Part shown: piece after piece, positions 3,239 to 63,763 of the stretch
Numbering within the stretch: position 1 is the first letter of the stretch
Layout: every line of letters begins with the position of its first letter
Assembly: GCA_964472585.1 (NCBI GenBank)
Contig: CAYYLJ010000002.1
Coordinates: 57,730-121,729 of the forward strand
Source of the DNA: an uncultured Enterobacteriaceae bacterium
Lineage (GTDB): Bacteria; Verrucomicrobiota; Verrucomicrobiia; Opitutales; UBA953
Reading direction: 5' to 3'
DNA: 64,000 nt
Notes under the pieces: generated by a model
Told to the model about the DNA's origin: nothing
The model's input: the letters and a program-made list of their open reading frames with translations, nothing else
The model's database searches: none
Program-made: the position numbers and the translations under genes

Positions 3239-5766
3239 GCTCCGGGCTCCCCATCGAGGCGCTCCGCGGCCCCCTCGCCGAGGCCTGCGCCCGCACCCGT
3301 CGGCTCATCCTGCGCGCGCCGACCGGCTCGGGCAAGTCGACCCAGGTGCCGCAGATGCTCGTCGACCTCGGTCTCGTCCGGGGCCAGGTGGTCGTCCTCC
3401 AGCCACGGCGCATCGCCGCGCGCCTCCTCGCCGCCCGCATCGCCGAGGAGCGCGGCGGGCGGCTGGGCGACGAGGTGGGCTACCAGATCCGCTTCGACCG
3501 CGTGGAGTCGGCCGCCACCCGGATCAAGTTCGTCACCGAGGCGCTCCTCCTGCGGCAGATGGCGTCCGACCCGGACCTCTCCGGCGTCGGCGCGGTCGTC
3601 TTCGACGAGTTCCACGAGCGGAACCTGCACGCCGACGTCGCCCTCGCGCTCGCGCGCCGCCTCCAGGAGACGCGCCGCCCGGACCTCCTCCTCGTCGCCA
3701 TGTCGGCGACCCTGGACACCGAGGCGCTCGGCGCCTGGCTGCAGGGAGCGGAGACGCTCGCCGCCGACGGGCGGACCTACCCGGTGGACATCGAGCACGC
3801 GCCCCAGCCCCGCGACCCGCGACGCGGGCCGTGGGACGGCGCCGCGGAGGAGGTCCGCCGCCTGCTCCGCGAGGAGCCGGCGGGCGACATCCTCGTCTTC
3901 ATGCCCGGGGCCTTCGAGATCTCGCGCACCCTCGGCCTGCTCGCCGCCGCGCCGGAGTGCCGCGGCGCCGACCTCCTCCCCCTGCACGGCGAGCTGCCGC
4001 CCGAGGAGCAGGACCGCGCCGTGCGGCCCGGCGAGCGCCGCAAGGTCGTCGTCGCCACGAACGTCGCCGAGACCTCGCTCACCCTGCCCGGCATCCGCGC
4101 GGTGGTCGACGCGGGCCTGGCGCGCGTCGCGCGCTTCGACCCCGTCCGCGGCATCGACACGCTCCTGACCGAGCCCGTCAGCCGCGCCTCCGCCGAGCAG
4201 CGGGCCGGCCGGGCCGGCCGCACCGGTCCTGGCCGCTGCGTGCGCCTCTGGTCCAAGGCCGACCACGACGCGCGGCCCGCCCGGCAGGCCGCGGAGATCC
4301 GCCGGGTCGACCTCTGCGAGACCGTCCTGCTGCTGCGCGCCGGCGGCTGGGGCGACCCCGCGGCCTTCCCCTGGTTCGAGCCGCCCGAGCCGCGCGCGCT
4401 CGCCCGCGCCGAGGCCACCTTGGCGGACCTCGGCGCCCTCGGGCCCGTCGGCGAGCTCACGCCGCTCGGCCGCCGCATGGCCGCCTTCCCCGCGCATCCC
4501 CGGCACGCGCGCATGCTGCTCGCGGCCGGCGAGCTCGGCTGCGTCGCCGAGATCGCCCGCGTCGCCGGGCTCGCCCAGGGGCGCGACATCCTCCTGCGCG
4601 GCGTCGACGCCGCCACCGAGCGCGAGCGCGACGCGGTCGGCGCCGCGCCCGGCTCCGACTTCCTCCTGCGGCTCGCGCTGCTCGACCGCGCCGCCGCCCT
4701 GCGCTTCGACACCGACGCCTGCGACCGCCTCGGCGTCCATGCCCAGGGCGCCCTCCAGGCCCATCGCGCCGCGCAGCAGTTCCTCCGGCTGGCCAAGGGG
4801 CAGGGCCTGCCGGTCGCGGACACGCCCGCCCCGCCCGAGGCCGTCCGCCGCTGCATCCTGCTCGGGCTCGGCGACCGCATCGCGGTCCGGCTCGACCACG
4901 GGACCCTGCGCTGCGCCGTCGTGCACGGCCGGCGCGGCGAGCTCCGGCGCGAGACCGCCGTCCGCGACGCCCGCCTGCTCGTCGCGGCCGAGATGGAGGA
5001 GGTCTCGGTGCGCGGCGAGGTCACGACCCTGCTCTCGCTCGCCACCGAGGTCGAGGAGGCGTGGCTGCGCGAGCTCTTCCCGGGCGACTTCTCCGAGGTC
5101 GCCGCGGCGCGCTACGACCCCGCCCAGCGCCGCGTCGTCACGCGCCTCGAGCGCCGGTTCCGCGACCTCGTCCTGGAGTCCCGCGAGCGCGACGACGCCC
5201 CGTCCGACGCCGCCAGCCGCCTGCTGGCCGACGAGGTGCTCGCCGGGCGGCTCGAGCTGGAGCGCTGGGACGCCGCGGTCGACGCCTGGATCCGCCGCGC
5301 GAACTTCCTCTCCCGCCACGCGCCCGAGCTCGGCATCCCGCCCTTCGACGCCGAGGCCCGCCGGATGGTCGTCGAGGAGCTCTGCGCCGGCGCCACGGCC
5401 TACCGCGACATCCGCGACCGCCCCGTCATGCCCGCCGTGCGGGGCTGGCTGACCCACGAGCAGGCGCTCGCCCTCGAGGACCTCTGCCCCGAGCGCATCG
5501 ACCTGCCGCGCAAGAAGCACCCGGCCCGCATCGAGTACACCGACGACGGCGAGGCGGTGATCGAGGCCACCGTCCAGGAGCTCTACGACTGCCCGGGCTC
5601 CCGGCTGCGCGTCTGCCGCGGCAAGGTGCCCCTGGTCGTCTGCATCCAGTCCCCCGCGCGCCGCACGCAGCAGCGCACCACCGACCTGGACGCCTTCTGG
5701 AAGGGCTCCTACGAGCTCGTGAAGAAGGAGCTGCGGGGCCGCTACCCGAGGCACGAATGGCGATGA
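3235..5766 (+). CDS. hrpB: ATP-dependent RNA helicase HrpB (DEAH box)
   Basis: The ATG overlaps the upstream TGA (ATGA). Motifs: [18 protein letters not shown] and TNVAETSLT, with a long HrpB-type C-terminal domain. About 843 aa. Confidence 0.9.
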
Positions 5767-12587: not shown

Positions 12588-12965
12588 ATGCTCGCCGAGT
12601 TCCGCAACTTCATCCTCCGGGGCAACGTCCTCGACCTGGCGGTGGCCGTCATCATCGGCGCCGCCTTCAACGGCATCGTCACCTCGCTGATCGGCGACAT
12701 GGTGACGCCCCTCCTGCTCCAGCCGGCCATGGACGCCCTCGGCGTCGCCGAGCTCGAGAAGGTCCAGTGGCAGGGCGTGAAGTACGGCAAGTTCCTCGCG
12801 GCCGTCCTCGGCTTCCTCGTGACGGCCGCCGTCGTCTTCGGCCTGGTCAAGCTCGCCAACACCCTGAGCGCCCGCAAGGCAGCCGCCCCGGTCACGCCCC
12901 CGCCCCCTTCCAAGGAGGAGCAGCTCCTCACCGAGATTCGCGACCTTCTCAAGGAGCGGCGTTAA
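12588..12965 (+). CDS. mscL: Large-conductance mechanosensitive channel
   Basis: FRNFILRGNVLDLAVAVIIGAAF signature. 125 aa. Confidence 0.93.
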   Translation: MLAEFRNFILRGNVLDLAVAVIIGAAFNGIVTSLIGDMVTPLLLQPAMDALGVAELEKVQWQGVKYGKFLAAVLGFLVTAAVVFGLVKLANTLSARKAAAPVTPPPPSKEEQLLTEIRDLLKERR

Positions 12966-12991
12966 GTTGCCTACTTTCCGACGGGCTTTTT

Positions 12992-13036
12992 TGCCTAAAA
13001 ATAGGCACAAAAGCTCTTATTGCCTAATTTTAGTCA
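12992..13036 (+). promoter_or_regulatory. Two dyad sites (TGCCTA-N4-TAGGCA and TGCCTA-N4-TAGTCA); candidate enhancer-binding-protein sites
   Basis: Perfect 16-bp palindrome at 12992-13007 and an imperfect copy at 13021-13036, with centres 29 bp apart. Both lie upstream of the sigma-54-like motif. A third TTGCCTA half-site is at 12967-12973. Confidence 0.45.
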
Positions 13037-13058
13037 AAGCCGAGTTTTGTTCTAAAGT

Positions 13059-13074
13059 TGGCACAGGGGGTGCT
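13059..13074 (+). promoter_or_regulatory. Sigma-54 (-24/-12) promoter candidate for glnN
   Basis: TGGCACaggggGTGCT against the consensus TGGCAC-N5-TTGCW. GG and GC have the canonical spacing. About 30 nt upstream of the glnN ATG. Confidence 0.6.
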
Positions 13075-13102
13075 TTTATCCCGTAGCTTTCCCAAATCCA
13101 CC

Positions 13103-15283
<2,181 letters not shown>

Positions 15284-15307
15284 GGCCGGCCGCCGCCGGT
15301 CTCGACG

Positions 15308-15335
15308 GGCCGCCCTTCGGGGCGGTCTTTTTTTG
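15308..15335 (+). terminator. Rho-independent terminator of glnN
   Basis: CCGCCC-TTCG-GGGCGG stem-loop followed by TCTTTTTTT. Confidence 0.8.
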
Positions 15336-15352
15336 CCTCCTGAAAGGCCGGC

Positions 15353-15558
15353 GGATGGAAAGGGTGGAAGGGATAGAAGGGATGATTGGGGGCGAATGGA
15401 AGGAGGGCGAGACGCGGCCGGACCAGATTCATGGGGCAGCGAGGATCCATTTTAATCCTTCCTATCATTTCATCCCTTTTATCCCTTCTATCCCTTTTAT
15501 CCTTTTTATCCCTTCCTTCCGTCCCTCCCTCAGTCCCCCTCGTCCTTTCAATCTCCCC
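15353..15558. repeat. 9-mer-array inverted-arm element, copy A
   Basis: The purine arm (15353-15414) includes GGAAGGGATAGAAGGGATGA. The pyrimidine arm (15449-15558) includes TCATCCCTTTTATCCCTTCTATCCCTTTTATCC. 15370-15385 is complementary to 15470-15485 at 15 of 16 positions. The element sits between two terminators. Confidence 0.8.
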
Positions 15559-15587
15559 AAACAAAAGACCCGGCCTGGGGCCGGGTC
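15559..15587 (-). terminator. Rho-independent terminator of rpsU
   Basis: On the minus strand, GACCCGGCC-CCAG-GCCGGGTC is followed by TTTTGTTT. Confidence 0.75.
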
Positions 15588-15613
15588 TCGCGGGGCGGGC
15601 CGTCAGGCCGCGC

Positions 15614-15814
15614 TCACTTGTGCTCCCACTTCTTCCGCAGGTAGGCGTTGAAGGCCTTGACCTTGTTCTTCCGGCGCTTGCGGGTGGTGGGCTTCTCGAA
15701 GCCGCGCTTGGCGCGCGCGTCCTTGATGATGTTCTCGCGGTCGACCTTCTTCTTCAGGCGACGGAGGGCCTTGTCGACGGCCTCTCCCTTGCGGATCTTG
15801 ATTTCGACGGGCAT
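15614..15814 (-). CDS. rpsU: 30S ribosomal protein S21
   Basis: 66 aa: MPVEIKIRKGEAVDKALRRLKKKVDRENIIKDARAKRGFEKP... Confidence 0.93.
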   Translation of the reverse strand: MPVEIKIRKGEAVDKALRRLKKKVDRENIIKDARAKRGFEKPTTRKRRKNKVKAFNAYLRKKWEHK

Positions 15815-20824: not shown

Positions 20825-21535
20825 ATGGCCGCCGGCGCCCCTAGCTCCCCGCGCCGCGCGGCTTGGATGGTCCTTGTCGCCGTCGGGCTGCTCCTCGCCC
20901 TTTTGCGACCCGGCACCGTCGCCCCCGGCCCCGCCCAGCCCGACCCCTCTCCCGGTCTCAGGATGCTGGCCGACGACTCCGCCTGGCTCGACCGCGCCCG
21001 GCTCGCCGACCCGGCCTTCCTGGTCACCCCCCCGGTGCGTCCGGTCGCCGGCGGGGCTGACGGCTCCATGCCCGAGGCGACCCCCTTCCCCCCGATACCC
21101 CCCGACTTCGTCGCCTCCCCCGAGGGCGCCTTCAAGCTCCCCCTGGCCTCGGTCGATCCCGCCGAGCCCCTGATGACAGACCCCTTCCCCAAGCTGGATC
21201 GCCCCCTCGAGACCATCGGAGAAAGGGTACCCCGGGCTTTGCCCCTGGCCCGAGCCCCCATCCTTAGGGCCACCTCCTTGGATGGCCGATTGGTCATCGA
21301 GCGCCCTTTGGAGGATGAAAGTTTAGTTAAGTCTCTATTTATAAACGATTTAAGTTATAAAAATCTTCCCACTTTAGGCCTTGGAATCGATGCTTTTGGA
21401 CTGCAAGGCGCCCCCGTCTTGCTGGCGGGGACCGGGGTCGCCGATCGCGACGAGGCCCTTTTGCAGTGGGCGACCAAGCAACCTTGGGCCTCTTGGCTGC
21501 CCCCCGGCGCCTATAGGGTGGAAGTCGGCCCTTGA
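20825..21535 (+). CDS. Hypothetical membrane-anchored protein with a Pro-rich linker
   Basis: 236-aa ORF starting 3 nt after the htrA-like stop, with an N-terminal TM segment. The 5' part has host-like GC3. The 3' third (from about 21240) shifts to A/T-ending codons. Confidence 0.5.
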   Translation: MAAGAPSSPRRAAWMVLVAVGLLLALLRPGTVAPGPAQPDPSPGLRMLADDSAWLDRARLADPAFLVTPPVRPVAGGADGSMPEATPFPPIPPDFVASPEGAFKLPLASVDPAEPLMTDPFPKLDRPLETIGERVPRALPLARAPILRATSLDGRLVIERPLEDESLVKSLFINDLSYKNLPTLGLGIDAFGLQGAPVLLAGTGVADRDEALLQWATKQPWASWLPPGAYRVEVGP

Positions 21536-36583: not shown

Positions 36584-38881
36584 ATGTCCGCCCAGAAACC
36601 CAGCTCAGGCAAGGAACCCGGTTACGGCTATGGCGGCGGCTATGGCGGCTACGGCGGCGTGGGCGGCTACGGCGCCTACGGCCAGTACGGGCAGTACGGG
36701 CAGTACGGCGGCTACGCCGGCTACGGCTACGGCTACGGCCAGCAGGCCAACCCGCTCTCGCAGTACCTCGTCATGGTCCGGGAGCGGATGTGGTACGTGG
36801 TTCTCTCCATCCTCGTCTTCGTCACCGCGGCGCTGATCTACACCGTCAACGCCACCCCCGAGTACCAGGCCAACGGCCGCCTCCGCGTCTACAAGTTCGC
36901 CCCCAACATCGCCGGACGCGGGGCGGGCGAGGAGATCTACGCCATCATGTCGACGGAGGACTTCAACACCGCCGTCGAGGTCATGCGCAGCACCGCCATC
37001 ATCGAGGCGGTCGAGCGCCGGCTCACCGCGAGCGAGCGCAAGGCCGTGCTCGAGCCCTACCAGGGCGGCAACATCTTCTCCGGCCCGCTGACCTCACAGG
37101 AGGTCTTCGCCCGCCAGCGCGGCATCGCGCCGCAGCGCGCCACCCTGGTGGTGAACGTCCAGTTCACCCACCCCGACCGCGACCTCGCCCGCCAGCTCGC
37201 CCGCCTCTTCTGCGAGGCCATCCAGAAGAACAGCGAGGACGAGCGCCTGACGGTCACCAACCCCCTGGTCGAGAAGGCGCGCGTCGAGATCGAGTCGCTC
37301 GAGGAGCGCCTCTCCCGCCTGTATCGCGAGAAGAACGACCTCGTGCAGCGCGAGAAGCTCCTCTCCATCGCCCGCGGCACCGACACCCTCGGCTCCGAGC
37401 GCGCCAGCCTGATCAAGGACCGCGAGGACGTCCGCCGGCAGATCGACGAGCTTGCCATCGTCTGGCAGCAGATCGCCGAGCACCGCGAGGCCAAGAAGGA
37501 CCTCACCCTCATCCCGCTCGTCAAGTCCGACGAGCGCGTCGCCCAGCTCGCGAACCGCCAGACCGAGCTCCAGGTCACCATCCAGACCATGGAGGAGAAG
37601 TACACCGAGAGCCACCCCGCCCTCCGCCTCACCCGCGAGCAGCTGGCGGCCGTCGGCAAGGAGCTCGTCGCCTCGGCCGAGGTCGCCGTCTCCCGCATCG
37701 ACAGCCAGCGCGGCGCCGCCGAGCAGCGCAAGGCCTCCGTCGAGCGCGCCCTCCAGGCCAAGGAGCAGGAGATCGCGCGCCTGCAGAACGCCAACATCGA
37801 GCTCGAGCGCATCGAGAAGGACATCCGCCTGAGCGAGGACTTCCTCGCCCGCCTCAAGCTCAGCTACGAGGACGCCAAGCTGCGCACCTCCACCACCGGC
37901 ACCTCGACCTCCGTCCGCATCCTCGACCAGCCCTCCGTCTCGGACCGACCCATCAACAAGAACTATTACCTCAACGTCGTCGTCGGCCTCGGCCTGGGCG
38001 CCGCCTTCGGCCTCGGCCTCGTCATCCTGCTCGGCGTGATGGACGACCGGATCAAGTCGGCCTCCGACATCGAGGGTGGAATCGGGCTGCCCCTCCTCGG
38101 CACCATCCCGCGCGTCCGCAACGCCTACGGCCCCGACCGCGCCCTGCTCGGCCGCCAGAACAAGGACCGCATGGCCATCGAGTCCCTGCGCGCCATCCAC
38201 TCGGTGATGAAGATCAATCCCGCCGCCGCCGGCGCCAAGGTCATCCTCACCACCTCGACCCGCCCGGGCGAGGGCAAGACCTTCGTCTCGACGAACGTCG
38301 CCCTCACCTTCGCCCAGCACGGCGAGCGCGTCCTCGTCCTCGACGGCGACCTCCGCCTCCCCAACGTCGCCGCCTCCCTCGCCATCGACTCGGACGCCGG
38401 CATCAGCAAGTACTTCAACGGCGAGATCACCCTCGACCAGGCCATCATCCGCGGCATCGAGCCCAACCTCGACATCCTGCCGGTCGGCTCGACCTGCAAG
38501 AACCCCACCCAGGTCATCAACAGCCCGAAGTTCGCCGAGCTGATCGCCGAGCTCCGCAACCGCTACGACCGCATCATCATCGACTCCCCGCCCCTCGGCG
38601 CCGTCTCCGACGCCCTGCACATGGTGTCGCTGGCCGACGGCGTCCTCTATGTCGTGCGCTTCAGCATGGTCAAGAAGCGCAACGCCCTCTCCTGCATCGC
38701 CCGCCTGCGCGAGGCCGGCGTCCCCATCGTCGGCGCCGTCCTCAACTCCATGGTGACCCGGATGGCCTCGTTCTACACCGACAGCTACGACGAGTCCTAC
38801 CGCAAGTATTACGCCGCCGAGGGCGAGGTGGCCCCCGAGGTCGCCGCCCCCGCGCCGGCCCCCTCCAAGGACAAGCCGTGA
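36584..38881 (+). CDS. Polysaccharide co-polymerase / BY-type tyrosine autokinase (Wzc/GumC-like)
   Basis: Wzz-type TM-coiled coil-TM periplasmic domain. Walker A PGEGKT, A' VLVLDGDLRLP, B IIIDSPPL. C-terminal Tyr cluster YTDSYDESYRKYY. An unusual N-terminal Gly/Tyr tract is also present. Confidence 0.85.
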   Translation: MSAQKPSSGKEPGYGYGGGYGGYGGVGGYGAYGQYGQYGQYGGYAGYGYGYGQQANPLSQYLVMVRERMWYVVLSILVFVTAALIYTVNATPEYQANGRLRVYKFAPNIAGRGAGEEIYAIMSTEDFNTAVEVMRSTAIIEAVERRLTASERKAVLEPYQGGNIFSGPLTSQEVFARQRGIAPQRATLVVNVQFTHPDRDLARQLARLFCEAIQKNSEDERLTVTNPLVEKARVEIESLEERLSRLYREKNDLVQREKLLSIARGTDTLGSERASLIKDREDVRRQIDELAIVWQQIAEHREAKKDLTLIPLVKSDERVAQLANRQTELQVTIQTMEEKYTESHPALRLTREQLAAVGKELVASAEVAVSRIDSQRGAAEQRKASVERALQAKEQEIARLQNANIELERIEKDIRLSEDFLARLKLSYEDAKLRTSTTGTSTSVRILDQPSVSDRPINKNYYLNVVVGLGLGAAFGLGLVILLGVMDDRIKSASDIEGGIGLPLLGTIPRVRNAYGPDRALLGRQNKDRMAIESLRAIHSVMKINPAAAGAKVILTTSTRPGEGKTFVSTNVALTFAQHGERVLVLDGDLRLPNVAASLAIDSDAGISKYFNGEITLDQAIIRGIEPNLDILPVGSTCKNPTQVINSPKFAELIAELRNRYDRIIIDSPPLGAVSDALHMVSLADGVLYVVRFSMVKKRNALSCIARLREAGVPIVGAVLNSMVTRMASFYTDSYDESYRKYYAAEGEVAPEVAAPAPAPSKDKP

Positions 38882-50225: not shown

Positions 50226-50243
50226 GGCTGAGCGCATCAAAAC

Positions 50244-50473
50244 GATAGAAGGGATAAAATGGGCGGAAGTGATAAAAGGATGGAAGGGATTAAGGGATAA
50301 AAAGGATATCAGGCCCCTGGCTGCGTAGGTCGGGAAATGGGAAACGGGGTGTTCATGCGCTGCCTCTCCGCCATCTTCATCATCACCCCCCATTCTTTTT
50401 CCTTTCTATCCTTTTATCCCTTAGTCGCTTCTATCCCTGCCATCCCTTCAATCCCCTTTCATTCCCTGATCCC
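50244..50473. repeat. 9-mer-array inverted-arm element, copy B
   Basis: Purine arm GATAGAAGGGATAAAATGGGCGGAAGTGATAAAAGGATGGAAGGGATTAAGGGATAAAAAGGATATC. The pyrimidine arm includes CCTTTCTATCCTTTTATCCCTT...TCTATCCCTGCCATCCCTTCAATCCC and ends exactly at the downstream ATG. Confidence 0.8.
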
Positions 50474-51892
50474 ATGCCCGAGACCACCCACGACGTCGCC
50501 ATCATCGGCGCCGGCATGTCCGGCCTGGCGGCGGCCCTGCGCCTCGGCATGTTCGGCAAGCGCGTGATCCTGCTCGAGCGCCACAACGCGCCGGGCGGAC
50601 TCAATTCCTTCTACGCCAAGGCCGGTCGGAAATACGACGTCGGCCTTCACGCGATGACGAACTGGGTCCCGGAGGGCGCCAAGGGCACGCCCCTGGCCAA
50701 GCTCCTCCGCCAGCTCCGCATCCGGCGCGAGGAGCTCGACCTCGCCCCCCAGCTCGGCTCCCGCATCGCGCTGGGCGGGCGCCAGCTGCGGATGACGAAC
50801 GACTTCGCGGTGCTCGAGTCCGAGGTCGCCCGCGAGTTCCCGGCCCGCATCGACGCCTTCCGGGCGGTCGACGCCGAGCTGCGCGCGATGGACGAGAACG
50901 CGCTCGACGCGCCCCCGGGCATGACCCGCGCCTGGCTCGCGGAGCGCCTGCGCGAGCCCGTCCTCGAGGAGATGCTCCTGCTGCCCGCCTGCTACTACGG
51001 CAGCGCGCACGAGGGCGACATCGAGCTGCGCCAGTTCGCCATCCTCTGGCGCGCCCTCTACCGCGAGGGCTTCGGCCGCCCGCTCGAGGGCGTGCGCGTC
51101 ATCCTCCGCGCCCTCGTCGACCGCCTCCGCGAGCACGGCGTCGAGCGCCGCATGCGCTGCGGCGTGCGCCGCATCCGCGCCGAGGCCGGCCGCGCCGCGG
51201 AGCTGGAGCTGGACGACGGGACGACGGTGCGGGCGGCCCAGGTGCTCTCCTGCGCCGGCCTGCCCGAGACGCTCCGCCTCTGCGACGACCAGCCCGCCGA
51301 CGCGGCCGCGGGCTCGCTCGGCCGCCTCGGCTACGCCGAGACCATCGCCACCTACCGCGCCGACGCCTTCGCGGGCTTCGGCTGGCGCGACACCATCGTC
51401 TTCTTCTGCGAGGGCGAGCGCCTCGACTACCGCTCGCCGGACGGCCTCGTCGACCCGCGCTCGGGCGTCATCTGCATCCCCAACAATTATGACTACGGCC
51501 CGGGGCGCGGGCTCGACGAGGGGTGGCTGCGGGTGACCTCGCTCGCCAACCATGCCGCCTGGAAGGCGCTGTCACCCGGGGACTACGCCTCGGCGAAGGC
51601 CGATTGGTTCGGCCGCCTCAACCGCGTCGCCCGCGCCCACCTGCCCGCCGTCCCCGACGCCGCGCACGACGCCGCGCTCGTCGCGACCGACATGTTCACG
51701 CCGACCACCGTCGCGCGCTACACCGGGCGGATCGACGGCGCCATCTACGGCGCGACCGAGAAGCGGCGCGACGGCCGCACCCACCTCTCGAACCTCTTCC
51801 TCATCGGCGCCGACCAGGGCTTCCTCGGCATCACGGGCGCGATCCTCTCGGGCATCTCGATGGCGAACCTGCACTGCCTGAGGGAAGGGTAG
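50474..51892 (+). CDS. NAD(P)/FAD-dependent oxidoreductase (phytoene-desaturase-like family)
   Basis: N-terminus DVAIIGAGMSGLAAA with an amine-oxidase-like length. The specific function is not recognisable. Confidence 0.7.
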   Translation: MPETTHDVAIIGAGMSGLAAALRLGMFGKRVILLERHNAPGGLNSFYAKAGRKYDVGLHAMTNWVPEGAKGTPLAKLLRQLRIRREELDLAPQLGSRIALGGRQLRMTNDFAVLESEVAREFPARIDAFRAVDAELRAMDENALDAPPGMTRAWLAERLREPVLEEMLLLPACYYGSAHEGDIELRQFAILWRALYREGFGRPLEGVRVILRALVDRLREHGVERRMRCGVRRIRAEAGRAAELELDDGTTVRAAQVLSCAGLPETLRLCDDQPADAAAGSLGRLGYAETIATYRADAFAGFGWRDTIVFFCEGERLDYRSPDGLVDPRSGVICIPNNYDYGPGRGLDEGWLRVTSLANHAAWKALSPGDYASAKADWFGRLNRVARAHLPAVPDAAHDAALVATDMFTPTTVARYTGRIDGAIYGATEKRRDGRTHLSNLFLIGADQGFLGITGAILSGISMANLHCLREG

Positions 51893-54459: not shown

Positions 54460-54804
54460 ATGCGTCTCGAGCATCGCAGCCAACCGCTGGCCCCCCGGCA
54501 TCGCTTCCTCAGGCGCCTCGCGGCCTATGCCTTGGCGGCCGCCCTGCTCATCGGCGTCTCCCTGCTGATCGGGGTGCTCGGCTATCGCCACCTCGCCGGC
54601 CTGGGCTGGGTCGACGCGCTGCTGAACGCCTCGATGATCCTCGGGGGTATGGGGCCGGTGGACATCCTTGCCGATGACGGTGCCAAGGTCTTCGCCTCGC
54701 TCTACGCCCTCTACAGCGGCGTCGCCCTGCTAAGCACCGTCTCGCTCCTCCTGACCCCGGTCGTCCACCGCGTCCTCCATCGGATGCACCTGGAGGGAAG
54801 GTAG
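54460..54804 (+). CDS. Small two-TM membrane protein (ion-channel-pore-like)
   Basis: 114 aa with two hydrophobic helices flanking LNASMILGGMGPVD. Confidence 0.5.
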   Translation: MRLEHRSQPLAPRHRFLRRLAAYALAAALLIGVSLLIGVLGYRHLAGLGWVDALLNASMILGGMGPVDILADDGAKVFASLYALYSGVALLSTVSLLLTPVVHRVLHRMHLEGR

Positions 54805-54818
54805 GCCTGACGGCCCCG

Positions 54819-54842
54819 CTTTTCGTCCTTCGTTTTTCGTCC
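54819..54842. repeat. Fragment of the GGACGAAAA-type unit array, in the pyrE leader
   Basis: The reverse complement of CTTTTCGTCCTTCGTTTTTCGTCC shares GGACGAAAAACGAAG with 58098-58112. Confidence 0.55.
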
Positions 54843-58023: not shown

Positions 58024-58258
58024 GCGGGGCGCGGCTTCACGGTGGGCAGCTTCACGGCTTCGCAGGGGCGCGGCTTCGCAGGGTCGCGGCAGGCAAAGGA
58101 CGAAAAACGAAGAGCGAAAAACGAAAGGGCAGGTGGGGTGGGGCGTGGGACTCCAAGGGGCAGGAAATGCATCCTGGTGCGCCCCTGCCCGATGCGGCGC
58201 CCCGCGCTTCTGTGCCGCTGTGAAGCCGCGAAGCCGTGCCGCTGTGAAGCCCCGCGCC
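58024..58258. repeat. Inverted-arm element, copy E (GGCTTCACG and GGACGAAAA units)
   Basis: The left arm GGCGCGGCTTCACGGTGGGCAGCTTCACGGCTTCGC is roughly complementary to the right arm GCGAAGCCGTGCCGCTGTGAAGCCCCGCGCC. The centre holds AAGGACGAAAAACGAAGAGCGAAAAACGAAAGG and the hairpin GGGGCAGG...CCCTGCCC. The element fills the whole yebC/ettA gap. Confidence 0.8.
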
Positions 58259-59937: not shown

Positions 59938-59989
59938 GGCAGGGCAGGGTCGCCGCCTCGCCCGCCGGGGCAAGAGGAACCTGCGCGAC

Positions 59990-60258
59990 GGCTTCACGGG
60001 TTGCGGCTTCACGGCTTCACGGGGCGCCTGACGGCGCCGGCCGGCTGATGGCTTAATCGCTTAATGGAAGGGGCAGGGAACCCATGGGTCGTGGTGCTTG
60101 TATGCACTTCACACCCCTTCGCCCCTATTCGTCCCTTTTCGTCCTTTTTATCCCTTAATCCCCCGACATCCTCAGCCCCCTTAGCATCCTTTTAATCCCT
60201 TTCTCCTTTCTATCCTTTCCATCCCCATCCTCATCCCCCTCCTCCTCTCCCGATCCCC
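59990..60258. repeat. Unit-array element, copy C
   Basis: GGCTTCACG x3, GCTTAAT x2, core AATGGAAGGGGCAGGGAACCCATGGG, then about 145 nt of pyrimidine-rich units (TTCGTCCCTTTTCGTCCTTTTTATCCCTTAATCCC...) ending 1 nt before the fucosidase ATG. Confidence 0.8.
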
Positions 60259-62154
60259 ATGCGCCCCCTCGCCGCCCTCCTTGCCCTGATTGTCGCCTCG
60301 CTCCCGGCCGCGGAGCCGCCCAAGCCCTTTGGCCCGACGCCCAGCCCCCGCCAGCTCGCCTGGATGGAGGTCGAGTACTACGGCTTCATCCACTACGGCC
60401 TCAACACCTACACCGGCAAGGAGTGGGGCTACGGCGACGAGTCGCCGTCGATCATGAAGCTCGAGCATTTCGACGCCGACGGCATCGCGCGCACCGCCAA
60501 GGAGGCGGGCATGGGCGGGCTGGTCGTCGTCGCCAAGCACCACGACGGTTTCTGCCTGTGGCCGACCGACACCACCCCGCACAATATCCGCAAGGCGCCC
60601 TACAAGGGCGGCAAGGGCGACATCGTCGGCGAGATGGCCGAGGCCTGCCGCCGCCACGGCCTCAAGCTCGGCATCTATGTCTCGCCCTGGGACCGCAACC
60701 ATCCCGAGTACGGCCGCGAGGGCTACAAGCGCGTGTTCGTCGAGCAGAACCGCGAGGTGCTCACCCGCTACGGCGACCTCTTCATGATGTGGTACGACGG
60801 CGCCAACGGCGGCGACGGCTACTACGGCGGCGCCCGCGAGCGCCGGCAGATCCCCAAGGACTATTATCCCTGGGACGAGGTCCGCGCGCTCATCCGCAAG
60901 CACCAGCCCATGGCCAGCGTCTTCGGCGACGGCGGTCCCGACGTCCGCTGGGTCGGCAACGAGAAGGGCTTCGCCGCCGAGACCTGCTGGGCGGTGACCT
61001 ATGCCGGCACCGGCATCCCCGCCGACTATGACCCGCGCGAGCTCAACGTCGGTTCCCCCAAGGGCAATGTCTGGCGTCCCGCCGAGTGCGACGTGTCCAT
61101 CCGCCCGGGCTGGTTCTACCACGCCCACGAGGACAACCGCGTGAAGGACCTCCGCGCCCTGTCCGAGATCTACTTCGCCTCGGTCGGCCGCGGCCAGGCG
61201 CTCAACCTCAACATCCCGCCCACGCCGCAGGGGCGCCTGCATGAGCGCGACGTCGCCTCGCTCCGCGCCCTCCGCGCCCACCTCGACGCGATGTTCAAGG
61301 TCGACCACGCCCGCGGCGCCAAGGCGGAGTCCGCCACCCGCCGCGGCGGCTCCGCCCGCTTCGCCGCCGCCGCCCTGACCGACGGCGAGCGCGACACCTA
61401 TTGGTGCGGCGAGGACGGCGACCTGACGCCCGAGGCGGTCGTCACCCTCCCCGCGCCCGCGACGGTCGACGTCGTCCGCGTCCGCGAGTACACCCCCCTC
61501 GGCCAGCGCGTCGAGGCCTTCGCCCTCGACGCCTGGGTGGGCGGCGACTGGCAGGAGGTCGCCTACGCGACGACCATCGGCCACCAGCGGATCCTGCGCT
61601 TCCCGGCCGTCACCTCCGACCGCTTCCGCCTGCGCGTCGTCGGCTCGCTCGCGGTCCCCTGCCTGAGCGAGTTCTCCCTCTTCAAGGAGCCGGAGGGCGC
61701 CCGCGGGCCGCAGGCCGCCTTCGCCCGCCGCAAGCCCGTCGGCTGGAAGGTCGTGTCCTCGACCGACGGCGGCAAGGGCGCCCCCGTCGAGCGCGCCATC
61801 GACGGCGACCCCTCCTCCTTCTGGCACACCCACCCGATGTCGGGCGAGCTCGCCCCGCCCCAGTCCTTCGTCGTCGACACCGGCCGCGAGCGCTCGGCCA
61901 AGGGCTTCTTCTACGTGCCCCGCCAGGATGGCACCCGCCACGGCATGACCGACCGCTACCGCTTCGAGGGCAGCCTCGACGGCGCGACCTGGTCCGTCCT
62001 CGCCGAGGGCGAGTTCGGCAACCTGCGCGCCAACCCGCAGGAGCAGGCCGTGACCTTCGCCGCCCCGGCCAAGCTCCGTTACTTCCGCTTCACCGGCCTG
62101 CGCGCCCTCGAGAAGTCCCATGTCAGCGCCGCCGAGGTCGGCCTGCTGGAGTGA
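60259..62154 (+). CDS. GH29 alpha-L-fucosidase with C-terminal F5/8 type C (discoidin) domains
   Basis: Signal peptide. Motifs: GFIHYGLNTY, KHHDGFCLWPT, YVSPWDRN. Two discoidin-like repeats are present (RVREYTPLGQRVEAF; RYFRFTGLRA). Confidence 0.88.
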   Translation: MRPLAALLALIVASLPAAEPPKPFGPTPSPRQLAWMEVEYYGFIHYGLNTYTGKEWGYGDESPSIMKLEHFDADGIARTAKEAGMGGLVVVAKHHDGFCLWPTDTTPHNIRKAPYKGGKGDIVGEMAEACRRHGLKLGIYVSPWDRNHPEYGREGYKRVFVEQNREVLTRYGDLFMMWYDGANGGDGYYGGARERRQIPKDYYPWDEVRALIRKHQPMASVFGDGGPDVRWVGNEKGFAAETCWAVTYAGTGIPADYDPRELNVGSPKGNVWRPAECDVSIRPGWFYHAHEDNRVKDLRALSEIYFASVGRGQALNLNIPPTPQGRLHERDVASLRALRAHLDAMFKVDHARGAKAESATRRGGSARFAAAALTDGERDTYWCGEDGDLTPEAVVTLPAPATVDVVRVREYTPLGQRVEAFALDAWVGGDWQEVAYATTIGHQRILRFPAVTSDRFRLRVVGSLAVPCLSEFSLFKEPEGARGPQAAFARRKPVGWKVVSSTDGGKGAPVERAIDGDPSSFWHTHPMSGELAPPQSFVVDTGRERSAKGFFYVPRQDGTRHGMTDRYRFEGSLDGATWSVLAEGEFGNLRANPQEQAVTFAAPAKLRYFRFTGLRALEKSHVSAAEVGLLE

Positions 62155-63542: not shown

Positions 63543-63567
63543 TGCTCTCCGGCGCCTGACTGGTGCA

Positions 63568-63753
63568 GGGATACAAAGGATAAAAAGGATACAAAGGATA
63601 CAAAGGATAGAAGGGATAAAAAGGAACTAAGACAGGAATCCCCGAGCCCCTCAATTCAGCCCGCCTCATCCCTTTTATCCCTTCCATCCCTTGGTCCCTT
63701 CTCTCCTTTTCATCCCTTCCATCCCTTAGTCCCTTCCATCCCTTTCCTCCCTC
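63568..63753. repeat. 9-mer-array inverted-arm element, copy D (between nusA and infB)
   Basis: Six consecutive 9-mers: GGATACAAA GGATAAAAA GGATACAAA GGATACAAA GGATAGAAG GGATAAAAA. The pyrimidine arm is TCATCCCTTTTATCCCTTCCATCCC...; 63605-63625 is nearly complementary to 63666-63689. Confidence 0.85.
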
Positions 63754-63763
63754 TAACGCATAC

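Follow-up and report, generated by a model that had tools for sequence, protein, structure and literature searches.

The window, by which we mean the whole stretch of DNA analysed, is 64 kb long and has 72% G+C. In the gap between its convergent genes glnN and rpsU lies element A, in which a purine-rich and a pyrimidine-rich array of units of about 9 nt face each other across a non-repetitive centre, and four siblings, elements B to E, lie elsewhere in the window. We tentatively propose, as the best of the available explanations, that A to E are non-autonomous palindromic elements whose nonamers would be protein recognition sites and which would have been diversified by slippage. The features of the glnN-rpsU locus are as follows; L numbers, here and below, designate contigs and loci from other genomes.

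13103-15283, + strand: glnN, glutamine synthetase type III
15307-15335, + strand: glnN intrinsic terminator with the stem GGGCCGCCC/GGGCGGTCT and, after it, a T7 run; L121, L123 and L125 conserve it
15336-15560, no strand: element A, about 220 bp between both terminators, 53% G+C
15349-15400, no strand: left arm of A, purine, GGA-type, GGATGGAAA GGGTGGAAG GGATAGAAG GGATGATTG
15401-15444, no strand: non-repetitive centre of A, AATGGAAGGAGGGCGAG...TTCATGGGGCAGCGAGG
15445-15558, no strand: right arm of A, pyrimidine, TCC-type, about 12 units, longer than the left arm
15565-15589, - strand: intrinsic terminator of rpsU, the right boundary of A
15614-15814, - strand: rpsU

The initial annotation, made from the letters of the window, had placed A between two convergent terminators and had described a purine and a pyrimidine arm built of roughly 9-nt units, and both statements hold. 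The glnN terminator forms the left boundary of the element and is itself outside it. After GGATAGAAG, the units of the left arm continue as GGATGA, and the right arm contains the series ..TTTCATCCC TTTTATCCC TTCTATCCC TTTTATCC TTTTTATCCC.., within which Tandem Repeats Finder reports a period of 9 with 5.2 copies and 86% matches at 15468-15514. The pairing claimed between GGGATAGAAGGGATGA and TCATCCCTTTTATCCC, 15 of 16 positions with one G-T, is also exact. By eye, the motifs AATGGAAGG and CATG in the centre of A recur in the centres of B, C, and D.

The other copies listed in the initial annotation were found as well, giving five elements and one fragment, all of them intergenic as it had said. 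Their positions are given below.

50236-50473, no strand: element B, arms at about 50240-50316 and 50385-50473
54819-54842, no strand: solo TCC-type half-arm, CTTTTCGTCC TTCGTTTTTCGTCC, unit family GGACGAAAA
58020-58260, no strand: element C, GC-rich, occupying the entire convergent gap between yebC and an ABC-F gene
58024-58090 and 58094-58130: left arm of C, GGCTTCACG-type units and then GGACGAAAA-type units
58195-58258: right arm of C, GTGAAGCC-type units
59985-60258, no strand: element D, a hybrid of two arm families
59988-60025: left arm of D, GGCTTCACG-type
60110-60258: right arm of D, CGTCC/ATCC-type, extending to the fucosidase ATG
63556-63762, no strand: element E, in the nusA-infB spacer
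63566-63631: left arm of E, starting CAGGGATACAAAGGATAAAAAGGAT
63663-63753: right arm of E

In all five elements, a GGA-type array is opposed to a TCC-type array, both with a period of 8-10 nt. Five chains of at least five GGA at 8-10 nt spacing were observed, while 100 local-composition shuffles gave a mean of 0.06 and a maximum of 1, so the family is far beyond chance. The elements occur in all three gene arrangements: convergent for A (glnN/rpsU) and C (yebC/ABC-F), divergent for B (sulfatase/amine oxidase) and D (ABC-F/fucosidase), and tandem for E (nusA, then infB). Element B lies between the start of the sulfatase gene (50192, - strand) and the amine-oxidase ATG (50474), and the half-arm is 22 nt upstream of a phosphoribosyltransferase (PRTase) ATG. 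Element C begins 6 nt past the yebC stop codon and reaches the ABC-F stop codon on its right, and its inverted ends match (CCGCGGGGCGCGGCTTCAC/GTGAAGCCCCGCGCCGG). No convincing open reading frame (ORF) is present within the window elements. A coding role, suggested by the ATGs in the centres of A-D and by the equivalence of 9 nt to three codons, was rejected because frames and lengths are not conserved and some frames enter neighbouring genes.

The initial annotation, mostly correct in its description, needs correction in some details. The description of all of them as much more AT-rich than their surroundings fits A, B, and E, with a GC content of 0.48-0.53 against 0.72 for the window; D is at 0.58, and C, at 0.70, does not fit. 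The exact 19-mer TCATCCCTTTTATCCCTTC, said to join A and D, occurs at 15470 and 63666 and therefore joins A with the copy at 63568-63753, which is E, and not with the copy at 59990, which is D. The sequence CCTTTTATCCCTT, expected exactly or as a close variant in A-D, is exact in A and B (and in E) and has a 1-nt variant in D, with none in C. Element C is built of other units, GGCTTCACG and GGACGAAAA. This one genome holds several unrelated unit families (GGATAAAAG, GGACGAAAA, and GGCTTCACG).

The GlnN and NusA homologues group the window with Opitutales (Verrucomicrobiota), where the closest records are metagenomic, and syntenic relatives among these allow the orthologous gaps to be compared. 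The exact GlnN and ABC-F proteins of the window matched no record. At the A site, the window gap is about 330 nt, while L125 (GlnN 88% identical) keeps both terminators, 11 nt apart, and has no element. Two relatives with 82-89% NusA identity, L131 and L136, cover the other sites: the C gap measures 245 nt in the window and 2 nt in L131; at D, the values are 321 nt against 76-80 nt in L131 and L136; and at E, they are 221 nt against 123 nt (L131) and 42 nt (L136). No arrays were found in about 60 kb of L131 and L136. The presence or absence of the element thus differs at four sites, A, C, D, and E, and the empty or short sites, together with the lack of arrays in these relatives, show that the elements were gained in the lineage of the window. 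This applies in particular to element C: its palindrome is complete, its ends match, and it occupies a junction between genes that is closed in L131, the whole gap being the insertion. To the left of the D insertion, the conserved motif GCAAGMGGAACCT has been kept. The motif GCAAG(A/C)GGAACCT is conserved in the ABC-F/fucosidase divergent spacer (window 59955-59985, L131 7915-7935, L136 7900-7920); it is possibly a -35 element (GGAAC) of the extracytoplasmic function (ECF) type or an operator, and D is inserted immediately to its right.

Between close strains, the elements are hypervariable. L134 and L135 encode a NusA protein identical to that of the window, with 98.3% nucleotide identity in nusA and about 95% identity of the contigs overall. 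Their alignment with the window extends to 14 nt past the nusA stop codon and resumes at the infB ATG; in between, 104 nt of GC-rich, purine-then-pyrimidine DNA without detectable similarity replace the 207 nt of the window. At the A site, L138-L141, with identical RpsU protein and 97-97.5% nucleotide identity in rpsU, have GGAGGACGA/GGAGGCGGA-type units, and the copy number of CTTTAATCC is five in L139 but one in L141, so that slippage is seen directly. L123 (glnN 94% identical in nucleotides) and L121 have further, different unit types at this site. Nevertheless, GCGGAGGATCAGC is common to L121 and L141, and the right ends of the window and L123 are similar, indicating diverged alleles of one insertion rather than independent insertions. 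Thus, the architecture (GGA-type array, centre, TCC-type array, 8-10 nt period) persists while the sequence does not, in strains that are 95-98% identical. Two of the assemblies break inside the element, with a run of N in the L138 scaffold (about 1720-1850) and the 3' end of the L140 contig within the array; these repeats limit the contiguity of metagenome assembly.

A pattern scan of GTDB species genomes returned at least 120 loci. Among the matches listed, there are coding false positives (the collagen-like L073 and the acidic repeats of L040), and many loci across phyla have the same architecture as A-E. Inward-facing pairs, with the purine arm first, number about 29 loci, and outward-facing pairs 5. 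In the same set, a shared arm, (A-rich)TTAA-CAGGGAT[G/A]AA[A/G]GGGAT[A/G]AAAGGGAT, occurs in Acidobacteriota (Pyrinomonadaceae, Chloracidobacterium, Solibacteraceae, and Holophaga) and in Opitutaceae, Chthoniobacterales, Spartobacteria, Terrimicrobiaceae, Kiritimatiellae, Geomonas, and Geobacter. About 35 nt (GAAAATTAACAGGGATGGAAGGGATAAAAGGGAT) are nearly identical across phyla, in Acidobacteriota, Opitutaceae, Chthoniobacterales, Geomonas, and Geobacter, and a CACGGAT-type relative with the anchor ATTTAAACACGGATTT occurs in Thermoguttaceae (Planctomycetota) and Segetibacter. An A-run and a T-run enclose the canonical copies (GAAAAATTAA...TTAATTTTTC), as in bidirectional terminators; the window copies are without them. 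Viral contigs gave only 5 matches among 2.9 million, so phages are not the carriers of the family, and the canonical element gave no match to plasmids and phages by BLAST, to which the low-complexity filter may contribute.

Sharply bounded copies were found in Pyrinomonadaceae, where a 175-bp unit, TA|GAGCAAATTTCAAT...ATTGAAATGCGATT|TA, has the nonamer palindrome as its core. It is present at unrelated loci of one metagenome-assembled genome (MAG; L082 and L107, on separate contigs) and in three other species, and L094 and L099 share it. The flanks are unrelated, and in two of four loci (L082 and L107) the unit adjoins a hairpin resembling an intrinsic terminator. This is the behaviour of a miniature inverted-repeat transposable element (MITE). 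In Thermoguttaceae there are six copies with invariant arms and variable centres, and the conservation between the two copies of L018 extends through the centre. Hybrid elements with unrelated arm families (D, L064, and L051) show that the arms are separable modules. In a Terrimicrobiaceae MAG (L026, 4980-5923), a 65-bp unit consisting of a TCC-type arm and its outer flank (..CATCCCTGTAGTTTCTTCCCATAAATATCGGCTG..) is repeated in tandem at least five times. At 5163-5548 of the same locus, a small GxxExxY (PD-(D/E)XK-like) ORF follows one arm directly and has its end within a GGAT arm; it was rejected as a partner protein since it adjoins arms in L026 only.

Could such arrays arise without mobility or function? 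In a self-perpetuating palindromic minisatellite, tandem duplications in G-poor leaders and spacers would expand by slippage, template switching at the quasi-palindrome would copy one arm onto the other, and the similarity between genomes would reflect convergence on slippage-prone motifs. The unit-number polymorphism between nearly identical strains, the alleles at the A and E sites that cannot be aligned yet are alike in architecture, and the assembly breaks within arrays all speak for this explanation. The composition of the arms also tracks the local strand skew, with the left arm A-rich and the right arm C-rich on the + strand, giving A·C mismatches. However, convergence cannot explain near-identity over about 35 nt across phyla that includes non-repetitive anchors, nor can it account for the sharply bounded dispersed copies or for a complete 245-nt palindrome in a 2-nt gene junction, and strict inward polarity is not predicted. 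We therefore consider a minisatellite of this kind quite unlikely.

In the proposal we favour, A and the four other elements belong to a widespread, non-autonomous palindromic DNA family, resembling MITEs and repetitive extragenic palindromic (REP) sequences, of which they are copies that have decayed or expanded. Each arm is a polar module, with an outer anchor followed inward by at least three direct repeats of a unit of about 9 bp with an invariant GGA(T) core, and two modules normally face each other across a variable centre. The nonamers would be reiterated sites for a sequence-specific DNA-binding protein acting in trans, most simply a transposase, by analogy with the terminal and subterminal repeats of complex DDE transposons. 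We infer that this protein would place the element, by transposition, in intergenic DNA, often beside terminators. After insertion, replication slippage would add and remove units, and template switching or gene conversion, either from arm to arm or from copy to copy, probably adds to the change. The outcome would be a minisatellite-like hypervariability between strains with the architecture kept. Any effects on neighbouring genes, such as a hairpin in read-through RNA or a G-poor leader before an ATG, would be side effects and not the reason for the existence of the element.

The initial annotation had offered three roles, and of these a REP/MITE-like mobile or recombinogenic element is the best supported, by presence and absence at four sites, by the ends of C, and by nearly identical, sharp-ended copies elsewhere. 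The gain and loss at orthologous sites and the matching ends of C, an insertion relative to L131, point to mobility, as do the dispersed, sharply bounded copies in other genomes and the near-identity of about 35 nt across phyla. The inward polarity, the separable arms of the hybrids, the fit of the arms to a consensus (see below), and the slippage and assembly breaks also speak for the proposal. Published descriptions of paired repeats in Geobacter, discussed below, also agree with this proposal.

The complementarity of the arms was compared with that of composition-keeping shuffles. The arms of A, B, C, and E pair better, with z from -5.0 to -7.1 and 0 of 200 shuffles as good (for C, -117 kcal/mol and z -7.1), and so do those of L123 (range z -5 to -7); the arms of D and L121 do not. 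The mutual complementarity claimed for the copies thus stands for A, B, C, and E and fails for D, whose own arms are not complementary (z +0.9) and whose left arm instead matches the right arm of C. The left arm of A pairs nearly as well with the right arms of D (-71 kcal/mol) and E (-67 kcal/mol) as with its own (-73 kcal/mol), showing that complementarity is a property of the family and not of a single element. Ten canonical pairs from different genomes have 83.1% of cells paired, compared with 81.0% after shuffling of partners (18 of 500 as high). The covariation is 0.158 against 0.124 in shuffles (12 of 500 as high), which is within the false-positive range of the tool, the range for unconstrained sequences; hence compensatory changes between arms, which had been suggested as a check, are weak. 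At variable columns, the identity with the own partner is 0.56, and with foreign partners 0.51 (p about 0.11). From the own-arm and shuffled-partner results, we conclude that the arms fit the consensus and not their own partner.

As RNA, whole elements fold with z of about -3.5 relative to shuffles, and in the predicted folds the GGA arm is almost wholly paired to the opposite arm and not in loops or single-stranded stretches. There is no consistent strand preference among the elements. Element E, in the nusA-infB unit, folds at -56.6 kcal/mol on the mRNA strand and -98.5 kcal/mol antisense, and the mRNA strand is weaker because the + strand arms are A-rich (left) and C-rich (right), following the local skew. 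By a crude ORF-based call, arms abut gene heads and gene tails in a ratio of 26:24, which, together with the three gene arrangements in the window, fits a DNA that is indifferent to transcription. No Rfam family covers the elements; at the gathering threshold in the window and 18 loci, and at E≤10 for A, the only matches were tRNAs, a cobalamin riboswitch, a group II intron, and sub-threshold matches to miRNA precursors, the last being a generic long-hairpin signal. Sigma-70 promoter scans of A and the canonical copies gave nothing above shuffles. With weak compensation and no better fold on the transcribed strand, the elements do not behave as structured cis-regulatory RNAs.

An element acting at the RNA level has to be weighed against these results. 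In this alternative, the transcribed GGA arm would be an array of Csr/Rsm-type (A(N)GGA) sites or simply the first side of a long hairpin; the other arm, C-rich and G-poor, would be a Rho-entry site or a leader masked by the hairpin, and the choice between protein and hairpin would decide how the flanking genes are terminated, processed by RNase III, or translated. The conserved unit at the outermost position, ACAGGGAUG(A), matches the published CsrA/RsmE consensus (RUACARGGAUGU/CANGGAYG), and ACAGGGAUGA fits it as well, a real resemblance and a lead that keeps a CsrA-type reading at low probability. Units recur every 9 nt, so that alternate units are 18 nt apart, the folds are more stable than shuffles, and there is a strong preference for purine followed by pyrimidine. 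In B, D, and E, the pyrimidine arm reaches a start codon, in a clade whose leaders are G-poor and lack a Shine-Dalgarno (SD) sequence, and the terminator-like A-run and T-run flank the canonical copies. Nonetheless, A lies outside both flanking intrinsic terminators, neither strand is preferred (E folds better antisense), covariation is weak, the arms of D and L121 are non-complementary, arms face gene heads as often as tails, and neither an Rfam family nor a sigma-70-like promoter was found. Similar arrays also occur in Bacteroidota, which are not known to have CsrA. We regard an RNA-level role as very unlikely, and the CsrB-like RNA hairpin, the third role offered in the initial annotation, is not supported as stated, given the weak covariation, the lack of a favoured strand, the position of A beyond the terminators, and the equal numbers of heads and tails.

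Taken together, the family-level pairing, the weak covariation, the absence of strand bias, the 26:24 ratio of heads to tails, and the separable arms favour sequence-specific recognition of modules of double-stranded DNA over a selected RNA helix. Such recognition would also be expected if A-E were chromosomal protein-binding arrays, that is, polar sites for an abundant nucleoid-associated or global regulator protein of the host. Inward-facing arrays would nucleate a symmetric nucleoprotein complex serving as an insulator, a domain boundary, or a supercoil sink, and the element would be a host feature and not selfish DNA. The fit of the arms to the consensus over the partner and the strict polarity agree with this, as does the invariance of the GGA(T) core while the other unit positions and the unit length (8-10 nt) vary. 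Close strains have different sequences at the A and E sites but the same architecture, the placement is symmetric regardless of gene orientation, and IHF/HU binding was hypothesised by the Geobacter authors for analogous paired repeats (PMC2700814). On the other hand, relatives with 82-89% NusA identity have no arrays at all four sites and in about 60 kb, so the arrays are dispensable. A single genome combines several unrelated unit families, strains differ in copy number and array length in the manner of neutral DNA, and no candidate protein was identified. For these reasons, we judge a host-encoded array unlikely. The second role offered in the initial annotation, a binding array or phased A-tracts, survives in part. 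An array is compatible with arms that fit a consensus and not each other, and is part of the model we favour; curvature is weakly supported since GC-rich versions of the architecture (L121, L141, and L134) have no A-tracts and a period of 8-10 bp is not the helical repeat.

How do these elements compare with known systems? The closest description is that of the 'nonanucleotide repeats' of Geobacter bemidjiensis, AAARRCNTTTA[MMRGGGATR]3AMWNCRAAAAM (Gbem_R9069-R9090), with 22 arms in 17 intergenic regions, two other nonamer families, and function unknown (Aklujkar et al. 2010, PMC2996986, Table S6). These have the same unit (ACAGGGATA/AAGGGGATA), three units per arm, an A/T-rich TTTA anchor, an intergenic location, and arms that are often paired, and such arms, together with the anchors, were found in Geomonas and Geobacter (loci L041, L063, L077, and L081). 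The repeats were listed in one genome without a palindromic architecture, cross-phylum spread, polymorphism, or mechanism. The window copies contain at least three tandem intergenic MMRGGGATR units (left arm of E, CAGGGATAC AAAGGATAA AAAGGATAC ... AGAAGGGATAA; left arm of A, GGATGGAAAGGGTGGAAGGGATAGAAGGGATGA), but they are longer, degenerate arrays without the TTAA anchor, and both flanking anchors, AAARRCNTTTA and AMWNCRAAAAM, are missing from them. The 'global regulator binding sites' of G. metallireducens, classes 1-3, are 3-5 tandem 7-9-nt repeats paired on opposite strands at variable distance, with ISGme8/9 inserted at a fixed distance, and the authors guessed at binding of the IHF/HU type (Aklujkar et al. 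2009, PMC2700814). They are likewise intergenic with several families per genome, but their units are GTTGCTYN, TCTCCGTS[Y], and MTYCTGA, and the IHF/HU binding is hypothesised only. Thus, this kind of element was noticed earlier and never characterised. The statement that it is not a described repeat class was nearly right, as the GGGAT nonamer arm is listed, unexplained, in a supplementary table (PMC2996986); a literature search by sequence words gave nothing relevant.

The elements share with MITEs (Correia and IS630/Tc1-type elements) a length of 100-300 bp, inverted ends, the lack of coding capacity, intergenic dispersal, presence and absence between relatives with conserved flanks, and positions next to terminators, and the Pyrinomonadaceae version has sharp, TA-flanked ends. 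They differ in having no known parent insertion sequence (IS), no proven target duplication, ends that are reiterated nonamer arrays, high divergence between copies, and arms of different families that can be combined. REP sequences and their composites, bacterial interspersed mosaic elements (BIMEs) and REP doublets forming hairpins (REPINs), which are linked to the REP-associated tyrosine transposase (RAYT, TnpA_REP), are similarly intergenic palindromic doublets with a variable spacer, hairpin potential, many copies, and genome-specific sequence families, and are IS insertion targets. However, a REP is one imperfect palindrome of about 20-35 nt that ends in GTAG, and not a tandem nonamer array; the outer ends here read CTGTTAA, CTGTGAA, CTGTAAA, or CTGTAGT, so that GTAG (CTAC) is not conserved, and no RAYT (Y1 HUH) gene is present in the 64-kb window. 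The short tandemly repeated repetitive (STRR) sequences of cyanobacteria are intergenic arrays of 7-nt units, with several families per genome, sometimes in opposite orientations, and of unknown function. Their sequences are unrelated to the 9-nt units here, and they are not known to have a defined anchor or an inward pairing rule. CsrB, RsmY, and RsmZ have many GGA motifs, and the units AAGGAUGA, CAGGAUGA, and ACAGGGAUGA resemble CsrB repeats, but here the GGA is opposed by a complementary arm instead of lying in a hairpin loop, and the motifs occur equally on both strands.

Complex DDE transposons (Ac/Ds, Mu, Tn7, and IS21) provide an analogy only, in that a terminal site and a reiterated internal motif form inward-facing ends. 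The canonical end CAGGGATGAAA is identical to the 11-bp terminal inverted repeat of maize Ac, which may be a coincidence and is a lead only; hAT elements are eukaryotic, and no transposase was found here. The ends of ISAs1-family IS elements are listed as CAGGG. As for intrinsic bidirectional terminators, the flanking A-run and T-run of the canonical copies resemble them; in the window, A lies between two ordinary terminators and B and D lie between divergent genes. A DnaA-box or iteron array (TTATCCACA) was rejected by eye, the units matching at 5-6 of 9 positions without the CACA part; five nonamer clusters in 64 kb, none beside dnaA or dnaN, are too many for an origin. A CRISPR array was rejected since the units are contiguous 8-10-mers without spacers. 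The family is therefore not categorically new but a poorly known variant of the small dispersed repeats of bacteria. Its unusual features are the nonamer-array arms, the conservation of the arm across phyla, and the extreme turnover at the strain level.

Several observations weigh against a non-autonomous mobile element. Neither a transposase nor another candidate enzyme was found among the window genes or between distant inward arm pairs in about 140 loci, where the genes seen were a Mur-ligase-like gene and one for a membrane protein, and no related autonomous element with the same ends appeared in this material. No target-site duplication is recognisable at A, C, D, or E, and the TA on both sides of all four Pyrinomonadaceae copies could belong to the inverted repeat. 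Copies nearly identical within one genome were seen in L082/L107, Thermoguttaceae, and L018, and not in the window, where the copies share units but do not align and are too divergent for recent transposition products. A single transposase could not move the hybrid elements. At the A and E sites, close strains differ in unit family yet share fragments (GCGGAGGATCAGC.. in L121/L141), which argues for turnover in situ and not for repeated insertion. Finally, several unrelated unit families have a 9-bp period in common, for which the proposal gives no reason.

A bolder version of the proposal is that the nonamer arm (TTAA-CAGGGAUGAAAGGGAU...) is a conserved, modular recognition array for one widespread protein in at least six phyla; we consider this a long shot. 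The arms may be (a) the ends of an undescribed bacterial transposon superfamily of very broad host range, with a terminal motif, CAGGGATGAAA, that coincides with eukaryotic hAT/Ac, or (b) a portable series of optimal Csr/Rsm-type sites (ACAGGGAUGA), planted in untranslated regions, where it may titrate or recruit a global RNA-binding regulator.

Some further observations concern the surroundings of the elements. The ABC-F gene lies between the right arm of C (58195-58258) and the left arm of D (59988-60025), and these two are so complementary (-103 kcal/mol) that the untranslated ends of the ABC-F mRNA, 5' and 3', could pair. The PRTase-yidC-yebC block similarly lies between a GGACGAAAA-type half-arm (54819) and the inner part of the left arm of C (58094), which may be chance. 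The general idea that matching families flank transcription units and let mRNA ends pair, based on the matches 54819/58096 and C-right/D-left, was rejected; with only three unit families among 14 arms, such matches are expected by chance, and the arms of A lie beyond the terminators, contrary to the idea. Upstream of glnN (12960-13102) is a textbook sigma-54 promoter, TTGGCACAGGGGGTGCTT, at about 13058-13075. The AT-rich dyads TTGCCTAAAAAATAGGCACAAAA and TTGCCTAATTTTAG that precede it look like NtrC-type enhancer sites, and the leader 3' of it has one CTTTTATCC unit at 13073. The centres of C and D contain TGGTGC-N5-TGC, which was rejected by eye as a sigma-54 promoter; the GG-to-GC spacing is one base shorter there than in the genuine glnN promoter (about 13059, TGGCAC-N5-GTGCT).

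No SD sequence precedes the start codons in the window (50460-50476, 60245-60261, and 13085-13105), L121, and L125, and leaders in this clade are C/A-rich and nearly G-free, such as caccaccaccacaaaccaccaccctcccacccgcaccaccATG before tuf. AUCC ahead of start codons was considered as a shifted SD and rejected, as the leaders of the clade are just rich in C and A and poor in G. The highest AT content in the window is found at 21270-21421 (GC 0.45), a stretch upstream of tRNA-Thr and tuf that has no nonamer arrays and is probably a strong promoter or UP region. A coding tandem repeat at 36634-36739, CGGCGGCTA x 10 followed by CGGCTA x 3.7, lies at the 5' end of a Wzz/tyrosine-kinase-like gene (36584-38881). 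An apparent ORF for a small membrane protein (about 114 aa) at 54460-54804, between the sulfatase and PRTase genes, is absent from the 166-nt gap of L131.

If our reading is correct, A-E belong to a family of small repeats, mobile or selfish, that spans phyla and escapes both annotation pipelines and Rfam. The promoters, leaders, and 3' regions of core genes such as glnN/rpsU and nusA-infB would then undergo very fast structural variation in strains that are 95-98% identical. The elements would be a practical cause of metagenome assembly breaks and, potentially, high-resolution strain markers of the variable number tandem repeat (VNTR) type. Identifying the protein that reads 9-bp GGGAT repeats would explain the 'multicopy nucleotide sequences' of the Geobacter genome papers. 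If either version, (a) or (b), of the cross-phylum recognition array were true, a curiosity from a supplementary table of 2010 would become a new cross-phylum system.

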